UHGV virus genome: UHGV-0150124
DNA length: 53,037 nt
DNA from: a virus
Strand: one strand, 5' to 3'
The stretch's first letter is position 1. The number at the start of each line of letters is the position of its first letter. Under the pieces are notes generated by a model that saw only the letters and a program-made list of their open reading frames with translations, had not been told where the DNA came from and did no database searches. The position numbers were made by a program, and so were the translations under genes. Shown piece by piece: positions 290 through 9,713 of this stretch.

Positions 290-574
290 TCAAGCCCACG
301 CGCGGACGCCGGGATCTGGAATGATGATTTTTTCCAGCGGCGACAAATCAACATCGTCACCAGTAATGCGCATGTTGACGTAATAGCCTTTTTTCTCAAT
401 CAGTACAGGCGTGTCGCTTTCTGGATCATCGAATACAAGAACAAAACCAATGTCATTAATAAACACGGTTTGCTGATTGGTGTCCAGCCAGCCGCTGTTA
501 ATCACGATGTCGTTGTATTGCTGTTTATCAGTAAATTGCAAGCTAACGTCTTTCATGTTAACCACCTTAAACAA
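290..574 (-). CDS. Hypothetical protein downstream of the tail fibre gene (possible fibre assembly factor)
   Basis: 94-aa ORF whose start overlaps the tail fibre stop; no recognisable motif. Confidence 0.35.
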   Translation of the reverse strand: MFKVVNMKDVSLQFTDKQQYNDIVINSGWLDTNQQTVFINDIGFVLVFDDPESDTPVLIEKKGYYVNMRITGDDVDLSPLEKIIIPDPGVRAWA

Positions 575-2354
575 TTTCGCTTAATTGAGAATCAGTTAAT
601 GCTTTGTGCCAAATACGAAAATTTCTGATATGTCCGAACAAGTGGCGCGTTCCATCGGATGTCTGACCACCAAAGCGGATGTTTTTGTCCTGTGTCACAC
701 CACCGTAGATACAAGTCGCATCACTAGCAGGTGCACCGTTCATGATCACATGGAATGTTCCATCGCCTTTAACCACCGCGCCAATAGTGGCGTTATCAGT
801 TAACTTAACACCAGCGGCAGAATTGATGTAAGCACCGTCGCTTTTGGATAGAGACATGTAATACTGATTGCTACCACGGTTAACCGCAGCGATAACTGAC
901 TGCCCATTCTTAGCGTTGGCAATATCCCAAACACGCGGCGCGGAGTTAGGCGCTCTGAACCAGTCCTTGTGAAGTTCGAGCAGGAAACTGAACGGAGGAC
1001 GCGCAAGGTTGTTTTTAGTCGTAATACTTACCAGATCGCTCGCACGGGTAGAAGGAGTTGAACCTGAGCTAATATACGATGATGCATTCGTACCAAGTTC
1101 GACTTGAGGAGTTGCCAGTTCCATGTAGTCGCCGGACACGAACGCGCTAACCGGAGCAAACTGAATTTGCGCGGTAACCAGCGTTACGGTTGATTTATAC
1201 GTCACCACTGCGCGATTCCATCCGGTGATGCTGTCCGTTGTTACGCTAACAGTGAGTTTGTCTGCATCGCCGCCTGTCTTCGTTACAGACATGTCGCTTA
1301 GTTTGATATACGCATCACACAGGAATGCCAGACTGGAAGTGTCTTCACCACCAGCAAAACGGATACGCAACCGGACGTCGTTTGACGAACGAAAACGACA
1401 AGAAGCGGTGACGTACTGTTCATCGTGCTGAGTAGTGTCGATAACGTTAGCAGTGATCACTGACGCCATGTTGCAACCACCAGTGCCGCCAACTGCACTG
1501 TCGTCGATCACGAATTTTCCGTACAGGAAACCGTAGCTGTCAGTTTCTGCTGTAGCGGTGACATTAGTTGATCGGCCCCAATTTGCAGGGACGCTACCGT
1601 TGATAAGGAAGTTTGTGCGAGCACCTTCGATTAATAATCCTTCGCGTTCGAAACGTGGCTCGTTAATATCAGCTACGGTTAAAACTCCTGATTTGTTAAT
1701 GTAAGTAGCTGTACTTGCGCGGGAGAAAGAAACAACCTTATCTGATGATATTGTTTTTTCTTCACCATCAATGGTTACTTTTTTCGTGCCTGGGCCGTAG
1801 CCAGTGATTATATCCAGAGAATCGTTAAACGGTATCCATACGTCCGGCAGCGGCTGCAAAACATACGCGTAAGGCTGTGCCGTCTGATTGGCGTATTCGT
1901 GGGCCTCGTCTCTGTATGTCTTAGCTGAATCGGCGGCGGTTGTCGCTGTTGTTGCCGCGTTGGTTGCAGTGGTAGCTGATTCTGATGCTAATTTCGAGGC
2001 TGAAATAACATCTTTGTTGTCGCTAAAAAATTCAACGGCGTCAGCTATTTCTGATTCTTTGCCCTGATAGTAACGCAGTGTTTCGGCAACATCCTGAGCA
2101 AGGCCATCCACAGAGATCGAATCTGAAAGCAGGATGCTATATTTAGTTCCAGCCGGAATTGCCGGGCTTGCCGCCGGAGTTACTGACAAACTTGTCGCGC
2201 TTTTTACCTCTGTGATTGAGAAAATCTGCACCGGATTGCTAATGGCAATAAGGGTGCAACCCACTCTAATCATAGATAATGCGGCATTGAATTCAGTGCC
2301 AGCTCCAGTAACTGTTTTTCCGCTAACGGCTATCGTGCCTGTTGTGTAAATCAT
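567..2354 (-). CDS. Tail fibre protein
   Basis: 595-aa ORF directly downstream of the J-like gene; Ser/Thr/Ala-rich shaft-like region; C-terminal region reminiscent of a lectin-like jelly-roll (by eye). Confidence 0.6.
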   Translation of the reverse strand: MIYTTGTIAVSGKTVTGAGTEFNAALSMIRVGCTLIAISNPVQIFSITEVKSATSLSVTPAASPAIPAGTKYSILLSDSISVDGLAQDVAETLRYYQGKESEIADAVEFFSDNKDVISASKLASESATTATNAATTATTAADSAKTYRDEAHEYANQTAQPYAYVLQPLPDVWIPFNDSLDIITGYGPGTKKVTIDGEEKTISSDKVVSFSRASTATYINKSGVLTVADINEPRFEREGLLIEGARTNFLINGSVPANWGRSTNVTATAETDSYGFLYGKFVIDDSAVGGTGGCNMASVITANVIDTTQHDEQYVTASCRFRSSNDVRLRIRFAGGEDTSSLAFLCDAYIKLSDMSVTKTGGDADKLTVSVTTDSITGWNRAVVTYKSTVTLVTAQIQFAPVSAFVSGDYMELATPQVELGTNASSYISSGSTPSTRASDLVSITTKNNLARPPFSFLLELHKDWFRAPNSAPRVWDIANAKNGQSVIAAVNRGSNQYYMSLSKSDGAYINSAAGVKLTDNATIGAVVKGDGTFHVIMNGAPASDATCIYGGVTQDKNIRFGGQTSDGTRHLFGHIRNFRIWHKALTDSQLSEIV

Positions 2355-2551
2355 TGCAATAACTCCATTATGTTAATTAACGGAATAATTCTACCATTTT
2401 GTAATCCGCGTTACACTTTGAGCTTATACATAATGTATTTTTTGATCTATGTCAACATACTAAATGATAGCTTCTGCGGTGATTTGCTCATCGGATGGGT
2501 GGATCATCACGAACAACAAATGACAGTAAAACAAACAGTAAGGTGAATACA

Positions 2552-2812
2552 ATGAAAAAACTAATTGTTGCTTGCATCTTATCGGCTCTGTCTTTTGGTG
2601 CTTTTGCTTCTGTAAATTCGACAGATAAGAGTGATGCTGGCACTGCTCAATATGGTGATACTAGCCTTGATAACCAACGTTCGAGTTATTTCAATACTGA
2701 CTCATGGAAAGAAAAACAACTACAAGGTAAAATTATTGACAGTGAATGTAATTTACCTATCCATTTTTCTGGTGTAAATGATGGGTGTGAAAAAAATAAA
2801 AACAATGCATAA
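2552..2812 (+). CDS. Small secreted protein, opposite-strand moron
   Basis: ATG at 2552 after AAGGTGA; N-terminal signal peptide MKKLIVACILSALSFGAFA; AT-rich; followed by terminator. Confidence 0.5.
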   Translation: MKKLIVACILSALSFGAFASVNSTDKSDAGTAQYGDTSLDNQRSSYFNTDSWKEKQLQGKIIDSECNLPIHFSGVNDGCEKNKNNA

Positions 2813-2840
2813 AAAAACGGGGCTTATGCCCCGTTTTTTA
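2811..2840. terminator. Bidirectional intrinsic terminator
   Basis: A-run, hairpin AACGGGGC-TTAT-GCCCCGTT, T-run; sits between convergent genes. Confidence 0.6.
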
Positions 2841-5800
2841 TGCTGTCGTTGATGTTATAAATGATCCGGTGCCTCTTGCTACTATCATTGTTGGAGAATA
2901 CAACGCGGTACAATATGCGTATCCTTCAGATGATGATGTTTGAGGACAATATATTTTCCCGATAATATCTGATGCTTTTAAACCAGAAAAAGCGCATTGC
3001 ACTGTTAATGTGCATCCACCATAAGGCACGTAATATGAAATTGTTTTGTTTTTATCTCCGCAACTAAACGTTACGTTATAAGTGGATCTATATTCACCAG
3101 ACATTAATGAAATAGTCGCCATAAGCATAACTGATTTCGTCAATGCATTATCCGTGCTGTCTTTATATGTGATGGTTGCGCTATAACTTCCGTTATGCCC
3201 AAGTACTCGATCTGGACCAACCCCCATGTTAGCAACGTCACCGATAAATGACTTTGCCTCTACTGTACCTTTAAACTTCCCGCTTGTGGCCTGAATCTCA
3301 CCAGTGAATTTACCAGATGTTGCGTACACCGTACCGCGTACAGTGACGTTGTTGAACTCCGCATTGCCGTTTTTATTTAGCATCCAGCCAGCCGAACCAG
3401 CTTTATAGTTGGTTGACTGAATTTGCTGCGCAATCTTCGCGGTAGTGATTGATGCGTCTCTGATCCACGCATCACGGATGTAGCAAGCACCGTTAGTAAC
3501 ATAGAACGGGGTCTGATAGGAGCCACCTGCCGCAGTCATAAGCACGAAACGGTCAACGAGGAAAATACACTGCGATTGAACGTTAGTCCCGCTACCAGTA
3601 AGGCCGAGCGACATTCCTGTAGCGTATTTCATACCGTTTTTATCAGTGGCAATCTTAATTGAATATGACGCATCAACGTTACCTTTGAAGTCAGTCAGTG
3701 CTTTTGATGTCGTTTCTATCGCCGTTGTGTTTCCGTTAATAGTTACTTTCAACTGGTCGATTCTGGTTGACAATGCCTCGTCTGCCGTTGCCATAGCCTG
3801 TGACCATTCCGTGATGCTTGAGTTTACATCGTCGAAAGATGCCGAGATCTGGCCAAATTTTTCCGCGCTTGATGTTTCATGCGTAGAAAGTGCAGTTGAC
3901 ACTTCGGATACTTTCGAATTAATCGTACTGGTAAGCGATGAGTTAAGGCTGCTGATTGCGTCAGTGCGTGCATTCTTCTCATCTGCGATCGCTTTATCCA
4001 TCCTGGTTACGTTGCTTGTCACCTTGCTATCGAGCGTGGAAATTGACGCATTAACCCCGCTAATAGCTTCTGCGCGTGCGCTTGATTCATCGGCGATAGC
4101 CTGATCCAGGCGCTTAACACTGGCGTCAGTTTTGCTTTCAAGGGTACTGATATTGGCGTTAACGTTGCTAATGGCTTCAGCGCGTGCGCTTGATTCATCG
4201 GCTATCGCTGTATCTACCCTTGCTATTTCCGCTTTTGTTTTTGTTTGCCCTTTCCTGTATTTCGCCTCAATAATAGTGCTCATCTTGCTTTGTGCCATTG
4301 AGTTATTAATAAGAGCAAGTGAGGCGTTTTGCAGACTTGCTTTCGCCTGATCTATCTCGTCGCTGTTTTTATCAACCTCACTTTTAACGCCGTCAAGCGA
4401 CGCGCTGATACCTGATATCGCCTGAGCACGTGCGCTTGATTCATCGGCGATAGCCTGATCCAGGCGCTTAACACTGGCATTTGTGTTATTTTCAAGCGTT
4501 GTTAAATCAGCTTTAACCACTGTTATTGCGTCGCTTCTTGCCTGCGTTTCATCTGATATTGCTTTATCAAGGCGGGAAACGCTGGCGTCAGTTTTCTTGT
4601 CAAGCGTTGAGATACTTGCGTTCACGTCGCTGATAGCCTGAGTACGCGCACTTGTTTCGTCTGCAATTGCCCGGTCAAGACGGTTTACGCTGGCGTCAGT
4701 TTTCTTGTCAAGATTGCTTATTGAAGCGTTCACGCCGTTAATGGCTTCAGCGCGTGCGCTGGCCTCGTCAGCCACTGCGCGTTCCACACTGGAGATCTGA
4801 CCTTTAAGGTTAGAATCCATCGTGTTCATTTCTGCCGTGATGGTTTCCAGTGATTCCGCTGTCGCTTTTTTCTCTTCAGCGATAACGTTGTCAATACGGT
4901 CAATTTCAGCCTTCGTCTCTGTCCTACCTTTCTTGTACTGAGCGGTAAGAGTTACGCGAGTGTTAGTCTGTGCAAGCGAGTTATTGATAAGCGCCAATGA
5001 CGCGTTTTGCAGGCTTGCTTTTGCTTGCGCCAGTTCGCTGCCAACTTTTTCGCTGGATACTTCAAGGGAGTCTATTCTTGACTCATGCTGCCCAATATCA
5101 TCGGCGTTTTCCTTAACTTTTTTATAAAGATCTTCCGTTTCTTTTTTAAGTGTATCCGTGTCAGCTTTTATCGATCCTGTTTCTGTGATTAGGTTGTCAG
5201 TTTCAGTCCTTAAATCGTCAGTTATTTCGGTCAGATTGTCAGTTGCAGTTTTAAGGTCATTCGTAGCGCTTTCGATAAGATCAGTGCGGTCGCCTAGATC
5301 TTTAATGTCATCAACCATTTCTTTAAACTGTTTTGAATTCATCACGTCTTTGGTGACGTAATCGGTGATTTCATCAAAGTTTTCTGTTGGCTTACCTGAT
5401 GCTTCAACGAAATCTGACACGCCGAAAGCGTTACGTGTGCGCACATAAACGTAATATGTGTGACCTGTATTCATGCCGCCAAACGTCCACTGATGACCAC
5501 GACCTGTATATTGTGCTTTAGTGGTTACTGATGCCGGGTCGGTGATCTGTGTTTCACCTGAGTAATAAAACTCATAACTGGTATCAGTGGTGAGCGTTGT
5601 TCTGCTGATCGGGTAAACGGTAGCCTGGAATACACCAGGAACCCAATTAACGCCGACGGGGGCCGCTGGTGCACCAATAACCAGATCCACAATACTTTCC
5701 GCGCCCTTCATGCCAGTATCATTACGCCCGCGAATACCTAATGAATAGATTCCTGAGTCAATGCCATAAAAATCATAACTGTAATTCGTAGTTTCGTAGC

Positions 5801-7787
5801 TTTTGACTACAGCGCCAGTGGTGTTATATACGCGGATTTCAAAGGTCAGGCGACGGGTTGTCGTCTGTGTTTCCCACGTTGCGCGACACTGGACCGTTTC
5901 GGATCCAATGTTTATCACCTTCAGATTTTCAATGTTCGGCACGCGGAAGTGATTAAGCGTGTCGTTATTGATCTCGAAGATTGCACCATTATCAACTACA
6001 GCCTGTTTGTGTGGGTCGTGCTGTGCTGCCTCGATGGTGTATACGCTGTTATTTTCTGTTTCTGCTACGCTGGTGATTCGACATAAAACGGGTTTTGCTG
6101 CGTTGGTTGATACAGCAAAAACAGTGCCGTTACGAATCCATGCCGGGGCGTGTGCAAGGGTGATATTGTTCCCGTTAACTCCGGTGATCTGGTGTTTTTT
6201 AAATTTACCATCGCTATCGAGTAAGCTGATGGTGTCACCAGGGGCGATGTATTCAGAATCAACCTTATCGACAGTTATTACTCTTCCATTGTTGGCCACG
6301 ATACGACCGCCTAAACGAGCGCCTGCGCGGTTATTGTCGAGTATCTCGATAATATCACCTGGCGTAAAGTGAATCGCGTCACGGGCCATTTTAAACGTGA
6401 ATTTTGATGGTTCGCGTTTTGCTGTTTCTATCAGCCATTTTCCAGCGCGGTGCGCTTGCCCGCGTGAAGTGCAACCGAACGCCTCCAACGTGGTTTCGTT
6501 ATAACCATCACGGGCGATTAGTTTATCATCTGCGACATATTCTTTTGATTGCTCCCAGCCGTTTTCAGGGTCAGTCCAGGATACGATCACGGCGTTGTAG
6601 CATTCTGCGCGTGCGATACTTGAACGAGTAAATGCGCCATCAACGACGTTTGCATTTGTGATGGTGGCGATTGGATCTTGTGGCGCATCAATCATCACGG
6701 TAAGGCGTTGTCCATCCCATAACGCGATACCACGGAACATACCTGCGATGTTATCCAGTAGGTCGCGGGCGCTCATTTGCTCCGTAATGTAAGCGTTAAG
6801 CGTCATGCGAGGCTCAAGGCCACCATAGCCATCATCAACCAACTGATCGCAGTATTGAGAAAGCACGTACAAAGCGCCATCATCAACATCAATGTAACCA
6901 GCATGTCGAGCAAGCCCAAAGCGCTCGTTTTTAACCAGATACCGGAAAAGCCATGCAGGGTTATTGGTATACGCCTTTTTAAATCCACCAAGCCATAAAC
7001 CTGAATATGTGCGCGTTTCAGGATTGTAGTTGTCAGGCACATCAACAATCAGGCCACGAAGGTGATAGGTGCGGGTAGGCGTATCAGTATATTGATCGTG
7101 GTCAATTACTGCGCCAGCTACAGCGGTATGAGGATAAGACAGGTTATCGTCGATTATCTCGCTGTAACTGCTCCACCGCGTATCGTTCCGCAATAGATCG
7201 CTGTTGCTGTCTGCTGTCACGCGACGAACGCGAATATCAAACGGTTTTTCATCCGGTGCTTTAATGATGTGGGCTTCCAGATACTCACCGCTTTGTTTGC
7301 CGGGGCCAATTTGTATATCCTTAATCAGCGACCACGTAGAAGATGATGACGGTTTAACATCAACCATCAACATGACGGATGTATTATATTGATTGCCCTT
7401 TTCATCTGACTGAACGAGAGCATCAACGCCAAGATTCAACCTGACGCGGGTAACGTTTGGATCTGAAACAGTCCTGATTATTGGTGTGTCGTGAGTTACC
7501 TTTGCGTTGACAATAACGGTTGACTCAATGGCGTTAAAACCATTAATCGGCGATTGGTCAGTCGTGCCGTTGCGCCAGGCTATACTAATCCCCGGAATTG
7601 ATGTATTCCCGTTTGCGTCAGTAACAGGAGTGTCATTAAGCATCACGTCATTCAATGGCGCTTTCTGGTTTGCCGGACCGTATATCGGCCCTTCGCTGAG
7701 AATATCTAAAACACGATAAAACTGTTTGTGATACAGGTTATCGTTCAATAATGTTGGTGTTTTGGCTTTGCCGCCGCCGCTACTCAT
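2838..7787 (-). CDS. J: Host specificity / central tail fibre protein (lambda J-like) with a long repetitive coiled-coil insertion
   Basis: 1649 aa; N-terminal ~700 aa align by eye with lambda gpJ (e.g. WSSYSEIID...RTYHLRGLIVDVPDNYNPETRTYSGLW vs WSSYTEIID...RNYHLRGRILQVPSNYNPQTRQYSGIW); central ~36-aa repeats. Confidence 0.85.
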   Translation of the reverse strand: MSSGGGKAKTPTLLNDNLYHKQFYRVLDILSEGPIYGPANQKAPLNDVMLNDTPVTDANGNTSIPGISIAWRNGTTDQSPINGFNAIESTVIVNAKVTHDTPIIRTVSDPNVTRVRLNLGVDALVQSDEKGNQYNTSVMLMVDVKPSSSSTWSLIKDIQIGPGKQSGEYLEAHIIKAPDEKPFDIRVRRVTADSNSDLLRNDTRWSSYSEIIDDNLSYPHTAVAGAVIDHDQYTDTPTRTYHLRGLIVDVPDNYNPETRTYSGLWLGGFKKAYTNNPAWLFRYLVKNERFGLARHAGYIDVDDGALYVLSQYCDQLVDDGYGGLEPRMTLNAYITEQMSARDLLDNIAGMFRGIALWDGQRLTVMIDAPQDPIATITNANVVDGAFTRSSIARAECYNAVIVSWTDPENGWEQSKEYVADDKLIARDGYNETTLEAFGCTSRGQAHRAGKWLIETAKREPSKFTFKMARDAIHFTPGDIIEILDNNRAGARLGGRIVANNGRVITVDKVDSEYIAPGDTISLLDSDGKFKKHQITGVNGNNITLAHAPAWIRNGTVFAVSTNAAKPVLCRITSVAETENNSVYTIEAAQHDPHKQAVVDNGAIFEINNDTLNHFRVPNIENLKVINIGSETVQCRATWETQTTTRRLTFEIRVYNTTGAVVKSYETTNYSYDFYGIDSGIYSLGIRGRNDTGMKGAESIVDLVIGAPAAPVGVNWVPGVFQATVYPISRTTLTTDTSYEFYYSGETQITDPASVTTKAQYTGRGHQWTFGGMNTGHTYYVYVRTRNAFGVSDFVEASGKPTENFDEITDYVTKDVMNSKQFKEMVDDIKDLGDRTDLIESATNDLKTATDNLTEITDDLRTETDNLITETGSIKADTDTLKKETEDLYKKVKENADDIGQHESRIDSLEVSSEKVGSELAQAKASLQNASLALINNSLAQTNTRVTLTAQYKKGRTETKAEIDRIDNVIAEEKKATAESLETITAEMNTMDSNLKGQISSVERAVADEASARAEAINGVNASISNLDKKTDASVNRLDRAIADETSARTQAISDVNASISTLDKKTDASVSRLDKAISDETQARSDAITVVKADLTTLENNTNASVKRLDQAIADESSARAQAISGISASLDGVKSEVDKNSDEIDQAKASLQNASLALINNSMAQSKMSTIIEAKYRKGQTKTKAEIARVDTAIADESSARAEAISNVNANISTLESKTDASVKRLDQAIADESSARAEAISGVNASISTLDSKVTSNVTRMDKAIADEKNARTDAISSLNSSLTSTINSKVSEVSTALSTHETSSAEKFGQISASFDDVNSSITEWSQAMATADEALSTRIDQLKVTINGNTTAIETTSKALTDFKGNVDASYSIKIATDKNGMKYATGMSLGLTGSGTNVQSQCIFLVDRFVLMTAAGGSYQTPFYVTNGACYIRDAWIRDASITTAKIAQQIQSTNYKAGSAGWMLNKNGNAEFNNVTVRGTVYATSGKFTGEIQATSGKFKGTVEAKSFIGDVANMGVGPDRVLGHNGSYSATITYKDSTDNALTKSVMLMATISLMSGEYRSTYNVTFSCGDKNKTISYYVPYGGCTLTVQCAFSGLKASDIIGKIYCPQTSSSEGYAYCTALYSPTMIVARGTGSFITSTTA
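3900..5100 (-). repeat. Intragenic near-tandem ~108-bp repeats inside the J-like gene
   Basis: Near-identical DNA blocks, e.g. GCGCGTGCGCTTGATTCATCGGCGATAGCCTGATCCAGGCGCTTAACACTGGC at ~4071 and ~4435; encode repeated RLDxAIADE(S/T)SARAxAIS units. Confidence 0.6.
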
Positions 7788-7801: not shown

Positions 7802-8332
7802 TTAACTTACAACGTCTAAGGCGTCTCTATTGTTGCTTGTGTCTATGCCTAACGATCCGACGTTTGAACCTATTTTCATTTCACCTAATAGTATTGGCAC
7901 TGGTCTACCCTGGCCCACCTTGTTTTCAATGCTGGTGTAGGTGTTGTTCGTTATGGTGTTATCTTGTGCGCTTTCTGCCGATGTTTTTATCTTCATGTTG
8001 CGGGACATAAAGATTGAGAACGCAACGCTAACCACCGAAACACCAATCAGGATCCAGCCTACAACACCAATCCCAGCAATACCGCCTTCAACTACTGGCG
8101 CAATAATGACGGTAGTTCCGTCAGGGTATTTACTATTAACCGCTGCCGGGGCCGTCTTTTCGTTATAATCTTTCCCGGCAATCCGTAACCGCAAAGGTGT
8201 ATTTAAAAAAGCCTTCTTGAATTCCTGATTCTGCGCGGTCAATAAGCGAAGCCCTTGCGCTGGCGTTTCAACGTTTAAACACACTTTGCTGTAATATCTT
8301 CGAAGATTGCCCGTAAATCTAAATTTGAGCAT
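7802..8332 (-). CDS. Tail assembly protein (lambda I-like)
   Basis: 176-aa ORF between K-like and J-like genes; hydrophobic central segment; assignment by position. Confidence 0.5.
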   Translation of the reverse strand: MLKFRFTGNLRRYYSKVCLNVETPAQGLRLLTAQNQEFKKAFLNTPLRLRIAGKDYNEKTAPAAVNSKYPDGTTVIIAPVVEGGIAGIGVVGWILIGVSVVSVAFSIFMSRNMKIKTSAESAQDNTITNNTYTSIENKVGQGRPVPILLGEMKIGSNVGSLGIDTSNNRDALDVVS

Positions 8333-9006
8333 TTATCAGATCTCCATATTGAATGCGTTTGTCGAACATAAGCAGGCCGCATTTGCTCGCGGCGGCTTAA
8401 TAATCCGGCATGGTCATGATGCAAAACCGTGTTATCACCCAGGTAAATCATTGCGTGACACGGGTCAGCGCCTTTGAATGGCTGGCGAATGATCACATCA
8501 CCAGGCTGTATGCTTTGCGCATCAACCTGATAAAACCCGTTCAATGGCAGGTTTTTTAAATACAGGTTTTCACCGCGAAGCCACCAGCCATCAAGGCGCT
8601 CGAAGTCAGGCAGATCTACACCGCAAAGGTGATATGCGTCGCGGAAAAGCGCGTAACAGTCTGTCGTTCCGTGTACGAATTTACGGCCTAGCAGGTGCGC
8701 AACCGGACGGAATTTCCTGATCTTGCCGCCGGAATATAAAAACCAGGGTAGCCCGGAAATAACCTGTTGCTGTCGATCCCGCGCTGACAATACAGGAATA
8801 TCACCAACGTGGGAGTGGAAAACGGCGGTTATAACGCCCAATTCGTCCGCTTTGATGTAATCGTCCGGCGAAATCTTGAAGCTGTTGTAAGGTGTTTCAG
8901 ACACGTTAGCGCACGGGTAAAAATACTCGTTATCTATTACAAGTCCGCAAACTTCCTCAAACGGATGCGCGGCGGCATAACGCGACATTTTGTCTTCCAT
9001 CCCCAT
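8275..9006 (-). CDS. Tail tip assembly protein K-like
   Basis: JAB/MPN-like AVFHSHVGD motif and Cys-containing peptidase-like region; position between L and I; track ORF extends to 9081, internal start at 9006 preferred. Confidence 0.65.
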   Translation of the reverse strand: MGMEDKMSRYAAAHPFEEVCGLVIDNEYFYPCANVSETPYNSFKISPDDYIKADELGVITAVFHSHVGDIPVLSARDRQQQVISGLPWFLYSGGKIRKFRPVAHLLGRKFVHGTTDCYALFRDAYHLCGVDLPDFERLDGWWLRGENLYLKNLPLNGFYQVDAQSIQPGDVIIRQPFKGADPCHAMIYLGDNTVLHHDHAGLLSRREQMRPAYVRQTHSIWRSDKCSNLDLRAIFEDITAKCV

Positions 9007-9008
9007 GA

Positions 9009-9713
9009 TTAACCTACCTTGCTGGAACCAGGAAAACAGGAGATCGGCAGTGCTGCCGGACGCGGAAAACGCAAACGGCAACCGCTAAGGCGGTGGCTGC
9101 ATTTGTCTAACGTTGGGTCACTTGTTGGTGTATCTTTATCAGTTGCGACCGGGCCGCCAGAATACATGCACCCGTCGCCTCTGTATTGCCACTGACAAAC
9201 GTCAGCAAGGATGGTGCGCCCTGGGATAACGGCTTTATCTGCATCAATTGGCGTTGACAATTCATATTGCACCTGATCCGCTGTTTCTTCGCTCATTGCT
9301 TCAACGACGTAAAAAGATACAGCCTCAATAGATGGATCTGCGTCTGGATTGCCGTTAGGGAAGTTAACGGCGTCCAGGTATTTAACCTCCACCTGGCGGC
9401 GCGTAACCTTCATTCCTCGCAGGTCGTTGAAATCGTTATTCATCCCTGTGATTAGCCCGCCGATATTGGCTACAACCATTTGAGGCCGCGAATAAACGCC
9501 CTCGTTTTTCATTTCGAAGCCCGTCGTCTCGATCGGGTAGCTGTTGTAAGCTACTCCCTTCCAGATAACCTGGCCGTAATAGCCGTTCGCGCCGGAATGG
9601 AAGCGGATAACCTCGCCTCCCAGGGGAGTAAGGTCCAGTTCAAATAAGTCAATGACCGCGCCAACTCCGGCATCGACGGAATCAATAATCATCTCTCTCG
9701 GAATATTGCGCAT
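9009..9713 (-). CDS. Minor tail protein L-like
   Basis: 234 aa; alignment by eye with lambda gpL (LDAVNF...GN..ADP, C-terminal Cys cluster). Confidence 0.8.
   Translation of the reverse strand: MRNIPREMIIDSVDAGVGAVIDLFELDLTPLGGEVIRFHSGANGYYGQVIWKGVAYNSYPIETTGFEMKNEGVYSRPQMVVANIGGLITGMNNDFNDLRGMKVTRRQVEVKYLDAVNFPNGNPDADPSIEAVSFYVVEAMSEETADQVQYELSTPIDADKAVIPGRTILADVCQWQYRGDGCMYSGGPVATDKDTPTSDPTLDKCSHRLSGCRLRFPRPAALPISCFPGSSKVG

Follow-up and report, generated by a model that had tools for sequence, protein, structure and literature searches.

The virus genome UHGV-0150124, a stretch of 53,037 nucleotides (nt) that is referred to below as the window, carries a gene for a J-type tip attachment or central tail fibre protein (open reading frame (ORF) 2838..7787, minus strand, 1649 amino acids (aa)). 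The question raised by this locus is what the strongly repetitive middle part of the protein represents and what its repeats are good for. An initial annotation described it as a repetitive coiled-coil insertion of ~500 aa at 3900-5100, encoded by near-identical DNA blocks of ~55 bp, which would be prone to recombination and could vary fibre length or host range. In our view the repeats quite probably code for the alpha-helical shaft of a lambda-type tip protein in a much lengthened form, the length of which is changed unit by unit. All positions are those of the window, and (-) and (+) denote the strand.

The assignment of the gene to J is confirmed by Pfam, NCBIfam and PDB matches. In the N-terminal half Pfam finds FNIII-A_GpJ (aa 88-214), Phage-tail_3 (aa 335-492), Ig_J (aa 609-707) and Ig_J_second (aa 709-811), with the accessions PF24801, PF13550, PF24421 and PF24489. 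NCBIfam lambda_TipJ matches with E 4e-219, whereby its 730 bits stay below the strict 'exception' cut-off of 1950. Using phmmer, lambda J (PDB 8iyk_J, 1132 aa) aligns to aa 1-851 (E 4.5e-185) and a second time to aa 1351-1521 (lambda 839-1000). The ~500 residues between both matches lack a lambda counterpart, confirming the excess in length that had been noticed at first, and Pfam reports no domain across aa 812-1355. The protein is thus lambda-like on both sides, with hub and FNIII part at aa 1-811 and beta-prism plus C-terminal domain at aa ~1356-1649. Within the latter part lies the Phage_Tail_Tip domain (3309..3722 (-), aa 1356-1493, PF09327, E 2.7e-39), which corresponds to the lambda beta-prism or 'central straight fibre'. 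When aa 1340-1649 were modelled with the help of 17 database relatives, the result matched the central tail fibre of lambda in the open as well as the closed state (8xcj, E 4.7e-11; 8xck, E 3.6e-8). The C-terminal all-beta domain (2841..3227 (-), aa 1521-1649), with beta strands modelled at high confidence, is presumed to be the receptor-binding domain; a sequence match to the receptor-binding domain of lambda was not found.

In lambda gpJ an alpha-helical shaft (AHS) of 53 aa, residues 809-861, forms a three-helix structure between FNIII-2 and the beta-prism fibre (PDB 8XCK/8XCJ; PMC11101478). The helical region of the window J, extending from ~3666 to 5378 (aa 804-1374, ~570 predicted helical residues), has the same position and homologous flanks. 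Since the lambda shaft occupies this very place, the repeat-bearing region is best described as a roughly ten-fold expansion of a shaft that J already has, and not as an insertion of foreign origin. The originally annotated range 3900-5100 (aa 896-1296) covers all repeat units but falls short of the whole helical region.

The repetition is pronounced at protein level. Between aa 956 and 1289 the identity at a lag of 36 residues is 41.6% compared to 9.1 +/- 1.7% (maximum 15.8%) in 1000 shuffles, and a unit profile (hidden Markov model, HMM) finds eight units of 36 aa (108 nt) in two arrays (5 + 3), in agreement with the ~36-aa units of the initial annotation. A larger duplicated block, which it had mentioned as well, consists of aa 906-992 and aa 1132-1218 (49% identity, E 1e-27). 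The units make up 288 of the ~570 shaft residues; the others belong to a heptad segment, to two conserved nodes and to a degenerate helical tail. A consensus of 62 distinct units shows hydrophobic residues at positions 7, 10, 14, 25, 28, 32 and 35. All of these units have E17, A20 and A30, and 60 of them have R21.

At DNA level the units are far less uniform. A lag of 108 nt yields 51.2% identity versus 29.1 +/- 1.6% for codon shuffles, and the unit pairs of the window are 45-71% identical. The copies are thus mostly diverged and not near-identical as described at first. There is one exact 50-nt pair (copy 1 at 4429..4478 (-), copy 2 at 4075..4124 (-), 354 nt away), the longest exact repeat inside the gene, and besides it a few exact matches of 20-26 nt. 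No array is detected in J by Tandem Repeats Finder because the copies are too diverged in DNA, and protein-level units and lag statistics were therefore used.

This divergence also bears on whether the array in the window might be an assembly artefact, a concern already raised by the initial annotation. Three database entries for 'partial' tail tip fibre proteins (P0004, P0005, P0010) begin inside the repeat array; short-read assemblies thus evidently often break there, which would bias draft-genome surveys of unit number. In the window, however, the reading frame is intact, no exact repeat exceeds the 50 nt given above, and the 5+3 layout recurs in independent E. coli chromosomes that are 91-95% identical. 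We therefore regard the chance of an artefact as practically negligible.

Following the protein from the hub outwards, the shaft starts with a heptad-repeat part of xDLxxxT type (5028..5345 (-), aa 815-920), predicted to be helical by AlphaFold2 (AF2). Its hydrophobicity in Fourier analysis peaks at a period of 3.52 (power 101 versus a shuffle maximum of 85), and there is a weak match (E 0.003) to 6gao, the trimeric coiled-coil tail of reovirus sigma-1. Node A, KASLQNASLALINNSLAQTNTRVTLTAQYKKG, follows at 4923..5027 (-) (aa 921-955) and ends at a helix break (KKGRT, aa 952-956 in AF2). Array A with five units (4383..4922 (-), aa 956-1135) was found with the unit HMM and is modelled as a continuous helix; its hydrophobic period peaks at 3.60 (power 157 versus a shuffle maximum of 73). 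Node B, a second and diverged node copy (4245..4382 (-), aa 1136-1181), ends with RKGQTK at a further break (aa 1178-1183 in AF2) and is followed by Array B with three units (3921..4244 (-), aa 1182-1289), likewise found with the unit HMM and with a hydrophobic period of 3.60. The shaft closes with a degenerate helical end (3666..3920 (-), aa 1290-1374) that is kept in all orthologues and is modelled as helix to ~1374, then as strands. We termed the stretches before each array nodes (KASLQNASLALINNS...YKKG or YRKG); they show no helical periodicity and terminate at Gly breaks.

Across the 36-aa units the Fourier peak lies at 3.60 with a power of 157-180 (shuffle maximum ~74) and essentially nothing at 3.50. 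The hydrophobic pattern of a unit may be read as 7+11+7+11, hence ten turns per unit, as would be expected for a nearly untwisted bundle. The AF2 run on aa 801-1400 was a single-sequence monomer prediction (mean pLDDT, the predicted local distance difference test, 66) and is used as secondary structure evidence only. It is nearly all helix (aa 819-951, 957-1177 and 1184-1374) and changes to strands where the tail-tip domain starts. Both lines of evidence support the coiled-coil character proposed at first: the shaft is predicted to be helical across aa 819-1374 with two short breaks and has a hydrophobic seam of 3.52 and 3.60 residues. From the lambda and F-pyocin structures, which show three J chains per tail, together with the sequence pattern we infer that J would be trimeric and its shaft extended.

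The two breaks and the nodes in front of them might point to another role for the region. Nodes, and perhaps units, may be docking sites for side fibres or accessory proteins, such that the repeats set the spacing or the number of fibres and not the reach. In the F-type pyocin, side fibres attach at a kink of the shaft at G955 (PMC13455828), for which KKGRT and RKGQTK would be counterparts in the window J, and node A is the best conserved shaft part: its mean pairwise identity is 96% in 21 orthologues compared to 86-91% in the flanking shaft and 93% in the hub. Beside the hub, however, node A is not exceptional as 24.5% of the 32-aa hub windows are equally or more conserved, and the window shaft has no sequence similarity to the pyocin shaft. 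Moreover the phages mEp021 with two nodes and mEp515 with one have the same downstream fibre genes and the same receptor, so a node number that tracks the side-fibre genes was rejected. Docking as the main role of the repeats thus appears rather improbable.

How variable the shaft is becomes apparent from related genes. The DNA of the window J gene shares 84-90% identity with seven phage records, and six mEp phages among these seven cover 72-87% of window 33000-53037 at 86-88% identity. Judged by these two comparisons the window is a member of the mEpimmI group of temperate coliphages. A related gene is present in 35 of 5426 complete E. coli genomes, the best match being 95% identical. A word-indexed protein search with the repeat region gave 18 matches, mostly truncated fragments, and the unit counts were taken from phage records and complete E. 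coli chromosomes instead. The resulting 21 orthologues comprise the window, the seven phage records and thirteen E. coli prophages, counted with one profile.

Unit number varies from 2 to 15 and J length from 1350 to 1914 aa in this set. The shaft measures 278-855 aa, which would be 41-127 nm if extended (0.148 nm per residue); the window with 568 aa would reach about 84 nm. The layouts include 12+3, 9+3, 8+5, 8+3, 5+5, 5+4, 5+3, 4+1 and 3+1 as well as single arrays of 5, 4 or 2 units. The FDEI..AKA stretch that holds the heptads (window aa 804-924) varies as well, being 93, 100, 107, 121, 128, 142 or 156 aa long and thus changing in steps of 7 aa. Copy number hence differs among related prophages, as had been suspected.

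These layouts argue against a different geometry, namely a helical region that folds back at the two breaks into a compact antiparallel bundle, with extra units thickening or stiffening the tip. The two predicted breaks would permit it, a fold-back by 180 degrees is possible for the open lambda shaft (PMC11101478), and tails of ~130 nm are reported for the mEpimmI phages without mention of a long tip fibre (PMC11893012). A bundle of this kind would need arms of matched length. Yet arrays A and B change length independently among relatives, the three helical segments of the window are unequal (133, 221 and 191 aa), and in some orthologues there is just one array with one break. A folded-back bundle is therefore very unlikely.

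The steps in which length changes are best seen in nearly identical genes, which differ by exactly 108, 216 or 1002 nt. The J gene of mEp515 equals that of mEp021 minus exactly 1002 nt: both are 100% identical to nt 3395 and, in shifted register, from nt 3391 to the end. This narrows the crossover to about 5 nt between two partly identical 36-aa units, which have an identical stretch of 35 nt in common. In MS 21-1, GN04592 and LP-26-E1-261 the prophage J genes agree to 99.9%, and the number of perfect copies of DEASARAEAISNVNASVSSLESKTDASVSRLDKAIA in Array B is 1, 2 and 3, respectively. The MIN12 and 2-331 genes, at 98% identity, are 108 nt apart in length, and the window J differs from that of MS 21-1 by one heptad. 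Since the differences are of exactly these sizes with breakpoints inside units, in-register recombination is supported. Together with the range of 2-15 units this bears out the view of the initial annotation that the repeats are recombination-prone and vary the length of the fibre.

Chi sites (GCTGGTGG) were considered as a cause of local recombination. The window holds ten, all on the minus strand (1348, 8581, 13647, 17242, 17446, 18211, 19758, 25873, 28104 and 52136), compared to 0.9 +/- 1.0 expected from shuffles. None of the ten is located inside J, and the candidate was rejected.

Does the number of units matter for the host? E. coli K-12 has no O-antigen. Four mEpimmI phages (mEp010, mEp013, mEp044, mEp554) require LamB and two (mEp021, mEp515) require OmpA, and all six grow on K-12 according to the 2025 paper (PMC11893012). 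Our counts are 10, 5, 13 and 13 units for the LamB phages in the given order, and 13 and 5 for the OmpA phages. Both receptor groups thus include phages with 5 and with 13 units, hence the receptor follows the C-terminal domain type, which differs among orthologues, and not the repeat number; the idea that the repeats vary host range is not borne out by these data. Moreover, the shaft and the adjacent side-fibre gene are uncorrelated in length (Spearman rho 0.12, p 0.61; 20 genomes, a small sample of related genomes), and a shaft matched to the side fibres was rejected.

All this would agree with length differences that are selectively neutral. The repeats would then be unstable, any number of units in frame would work, and the variation would reflect mutation pressure and not an adaptation of reach or host range. 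That phages with 5, 10 and 13 units share a receptor and all plate on K-12, that shaft length is uncorrelated with side-fibre gene length and that near-identical prophages differ only by unit number speaks for it. On the other hand none of the 21 orthologues is free of an array, the minimum being 2 units, and in most genomes the units have diverged in DNA (≤ ~80% identity) while their protein pattern is strictly kept. In addition, host tests on a strain lacking O-antigen are blind to an effect of reach. We consider neutrality possible, though not the likelier case. The shaft most likely has a mechanical role as a spacer that determines how far the receptor-binding end reaches.

Some relatives have a shorter distal part. 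The J proteins of mEp021 (L001), mEp515 (L002), WCHEC025970 (L015) and M15 (L018) end ~100-130 aa earlier and lack the C-terminal Ig-like domain. In the first three of these a 935-nt gene on the opposite strand follows J, annotated as 'virion structural protein' in mEp021, 'hypothetical protein' in mEp515 and DUF6453 in WCHEC025970. In the short-J phages the receptor-binding part may be supplied by another protein.

Returning to the lengthened shaft as the favoured explanation, the following picture emerges. Three J chains would form the hub and close the tail as in lambda. The next ~570 residues of the three chains would most likely lie side by side as a three-stranded coiled coil, with ordinary heptads (3.5) first and the 36-residue units (3.6) thereafter, and with one or two conserved Gly-containing nodes that interrupt the helix and may serve as kinks or hinges. 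If extended, this shaft would hold the beta-prism and the receptor-binding domain ~84 nm ahead of the tail tip compared to ~8 nm in lambda. As each unit is a repeat of 108 nt and each heptad a repeat of 21 nt in the DNA, homologous recombination or slippage between copies could add or remove whole units in frame. Length would then change in quanta of ~5.3 nm (unit) or ~1.0 nm (heptad) with hub and receptor-binding end left undisturbed. Directly observed are the order of the domains, the periodicities of the helices and a length polymorphism that proceeds unit by unit and has its breakpoints within units, while an adaptive value of length, for example in reaching outer-membrane proteins through O-antigen or capsule, would be a further step.

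Several points weigh against this explanation. The AF2 evidence comes from a monomer modelled without an alignment and is of moderate confidence (mean pLDDT as given above). Several of the compared genomes are short-read assemblies, the mEp genomes being SOLiD plus Sanger or Illumina assemblies, and perfect tandem copies could in principle be miscounted in the E. coli chromosomes. For such reads the larger SPAdes k-mers are assumed to be longer than 35 nt. A collapse artefact at the mEp515 junction, where the identical run is 35 nt and thus shorter, seems unlikely. Unit number is not known to affect any phenotype, and it does not determine the receptor. A long tip fibre beside the ~130 nm tails goes unmentioned in the mEpimmI paper (PMC11893012). 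Finally, the lambda shaft refolds and flips upon receptor binding (PMC11101478), and the model would need a way for such a signal to travel over ~80 nm.

The last point also concerns a more far-reaching idea. The array may be an evolvable ruler, whereby gain and loss of units tunes the reach of the receptor-binding domain (~41-127 nm) to the depth of O-antigen or capsule of E. coli hosts. As the lambda-type trigger, shaft refolding beside the hub, cannot simply act over such distances, another way of bringing the tube to the membrane would be needed, for instance collapse or bending at the conserved Gly nodes. We put this forward as a tentative and rather doubtful proposal.

The unit itself has no curated family in the copies of Pfam, NCBIfam or PHROGs that were searched, where only chance-level coiled-coil matches (SMC, SF-assemblin etc.) appear, and none of the solved structures in the PDB resembles it in sequence. 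Some database fragments bear the precomputed accession PF28217, which is absent from the Pfam copy searched. The unit segment AISGVNASISxLDKKTDxxVNRLD (3921-4922) resembles the HR2 stalk of coronavirus spike S2 (PDB 1zva / 7y9n) at chance level (E 0.22), which probably reflects convergence of trimeric coiled-coil patterns. An exhaustive profile-free search finds the motif AIxDExxAR in 105 protein clusters, several at 36-residue spacing. They include J-like proteins of up to 2921 aa, S74-chaperone fibres and one adhesin-like protein with an 18-residue version, and owing to this recurrence the unit is a widespread fibre-shaft module. The adhesin-like protein (P0023, 1834 aa) contains many 18-residue repeats (QEVSRLDTAISDEKTKRE) sharing RLDxAIxDE with the phage unit; judged by eye it looks like a trimeric autotransporter adhesin, and the same half-unit motif may serve in bacterial adhesin stalks too.

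An antisense ORF of 152 aa (3646-4104 (+)) lies inside the repeat region. It was rejected as a real gene as the stop-free antisense runs of the orthologues differ in position and length, and it is most likely a by-product of the repeat codon set.

Upstream of J the gene order is L-K-I-J, with Phage_tail_L at 9009-9713, an NlpC/P60 K-like gene at 8275-9081 and an I-sized ORF at 7802-8332; orthologous loci are annotated as L, K/C40 peptidase, I and J. In mEp021 and mEp515 an ORF of 567 nt lies between I and J (1937-2503 in L001 and L002), annotated as putative HNH endonuclease in the former and 'hypothetical protein' in the latter. The window, where I is immediately followed by J, lacks this ORF, as do the other relatives. 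The product of the gene after J (567-2354 (-)) is a tail fibre protein of 595 aa (phrog_1419) with a concanavalin-A-like lectin domain at its C-terminus; next comes a 94-aa ORF (290-574 (-), phrog_1361). Relatives carry fibres of ~450 to ~1160 aa at the position of the 595-aa fibre, some with S74 chaperone domains, hence the side-fibre module is swapped independently of J. Between J and the side-fibre gene a small ORF is located on the opposite strand (2495-2812 (+)). Its translation probably begins at M19 with a signal peptide thereafter (MKKLIVACILSALSFGAFA, then S), and it matches phrog_2243 weakly. It sits where mEp phages have a 'lipoprotein' or superinfection-exclusion gene and other phages cor.

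The current understanding of J proteins is not changed by these results. New are the identification of the region as an expanded shaft, its two registers, the unit-wise and heptad-wise length series over 21 orthologues and the three sets of near-identical alleles with documented gain or loss of whole units, while variable repeats in mEpimmI J (in the 2025 paper) and a long J-type shaft (solved in an F-type pyocin) are already published. If shaft length scales with units, nature provides a near-isogenic series: mEp021 and mEp515 J differ only by 334 shaft residues and the three prophages by one and two units. It could be used to learn how adsorption through surface polysaccharide depends on the reach of a siphophage central fibre and how the receptor signal gets from a distant tip to the tail. 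Phage engineers would gain a modular spacer that is adjustable by 36 residues (~5.3 nm) or by 7 residues (~1 nm) at a time and copes with large differences in length.

Among known systems the mEpimmI phages mEp021, mEp010, mEp013, mEp044, mEp515 and mEp554 are closest, sharing gene, genome type, unit sequence, nodes and post-repeat stretch with the window. Their J proteins were described to differ in size and to contain 'repeats of different length' at positions 950-1475 (Front Microbiol 2025, PMC11893012); in the available text of that paper the 36-aa unit and its periodicity are not defined, nor are the variation in heptad steps and the junctions of recombination. The window differs by a new allele (best E. 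coli match 95%) with 5+3 layout. Its C-terminal domain stretch is not common with mEp021 DNA, and its domain type is absent from all six mEp phages, the closest being MagusPhagus and prophages of the MS 21-1 type.

The lambda shaft is a three-helix bundle in a trimeric J, which at 53 aa is short compared to the ~570 aa of the window, the latter being repetitive, built in two registers (3.5 and 3.6) and interrupted by nodes. The J-like PyoF10 of the F-type pyocin (PDB 25vf, 2026) has an 'exceptionally long' three-stranded coiled-coil shaft with the G955 kink that docks the side fibres (PMC13455828). It resembles the window J as a lambda-type hub protein with a long shaft and a Gly kink, recalling the Gly breaks. 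It differs by a shaft of dissimilar sequence, for which neither a 36-aa array nor copy-number variation is reported (PMC13455828). Side-fibre docking at a kink is a feature of the pyocin and for the nodes of the window a candidate role only.

The stalks of trimeric autotransporter adhesins (YadA, UspA or BadA type) are trimeric coiled coils mixing heptads with longer periodicities, and their repeat number, hence their length, differs between strains. These are bacterial surface proteins, and the likeness to J is limited to the coiled-coil repeat motif, with no common ancestry beyond it; in J no YadA-type membrane anchor or secretion-signal domain is found by Pfam. Repeats in phage fibre genes are known as recombination sites, such as the collagen-like repeats in host-range genes of Streptococcus thermophilus phages and the His-box of T-even gp37/gp38. 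Like those, the J repeats provide homology for in-frame rearrangement. Unlike those, the documented events in J alter the length of the shaft, and the changes in C-terminal type lie downstream of the array and not within the repeats.

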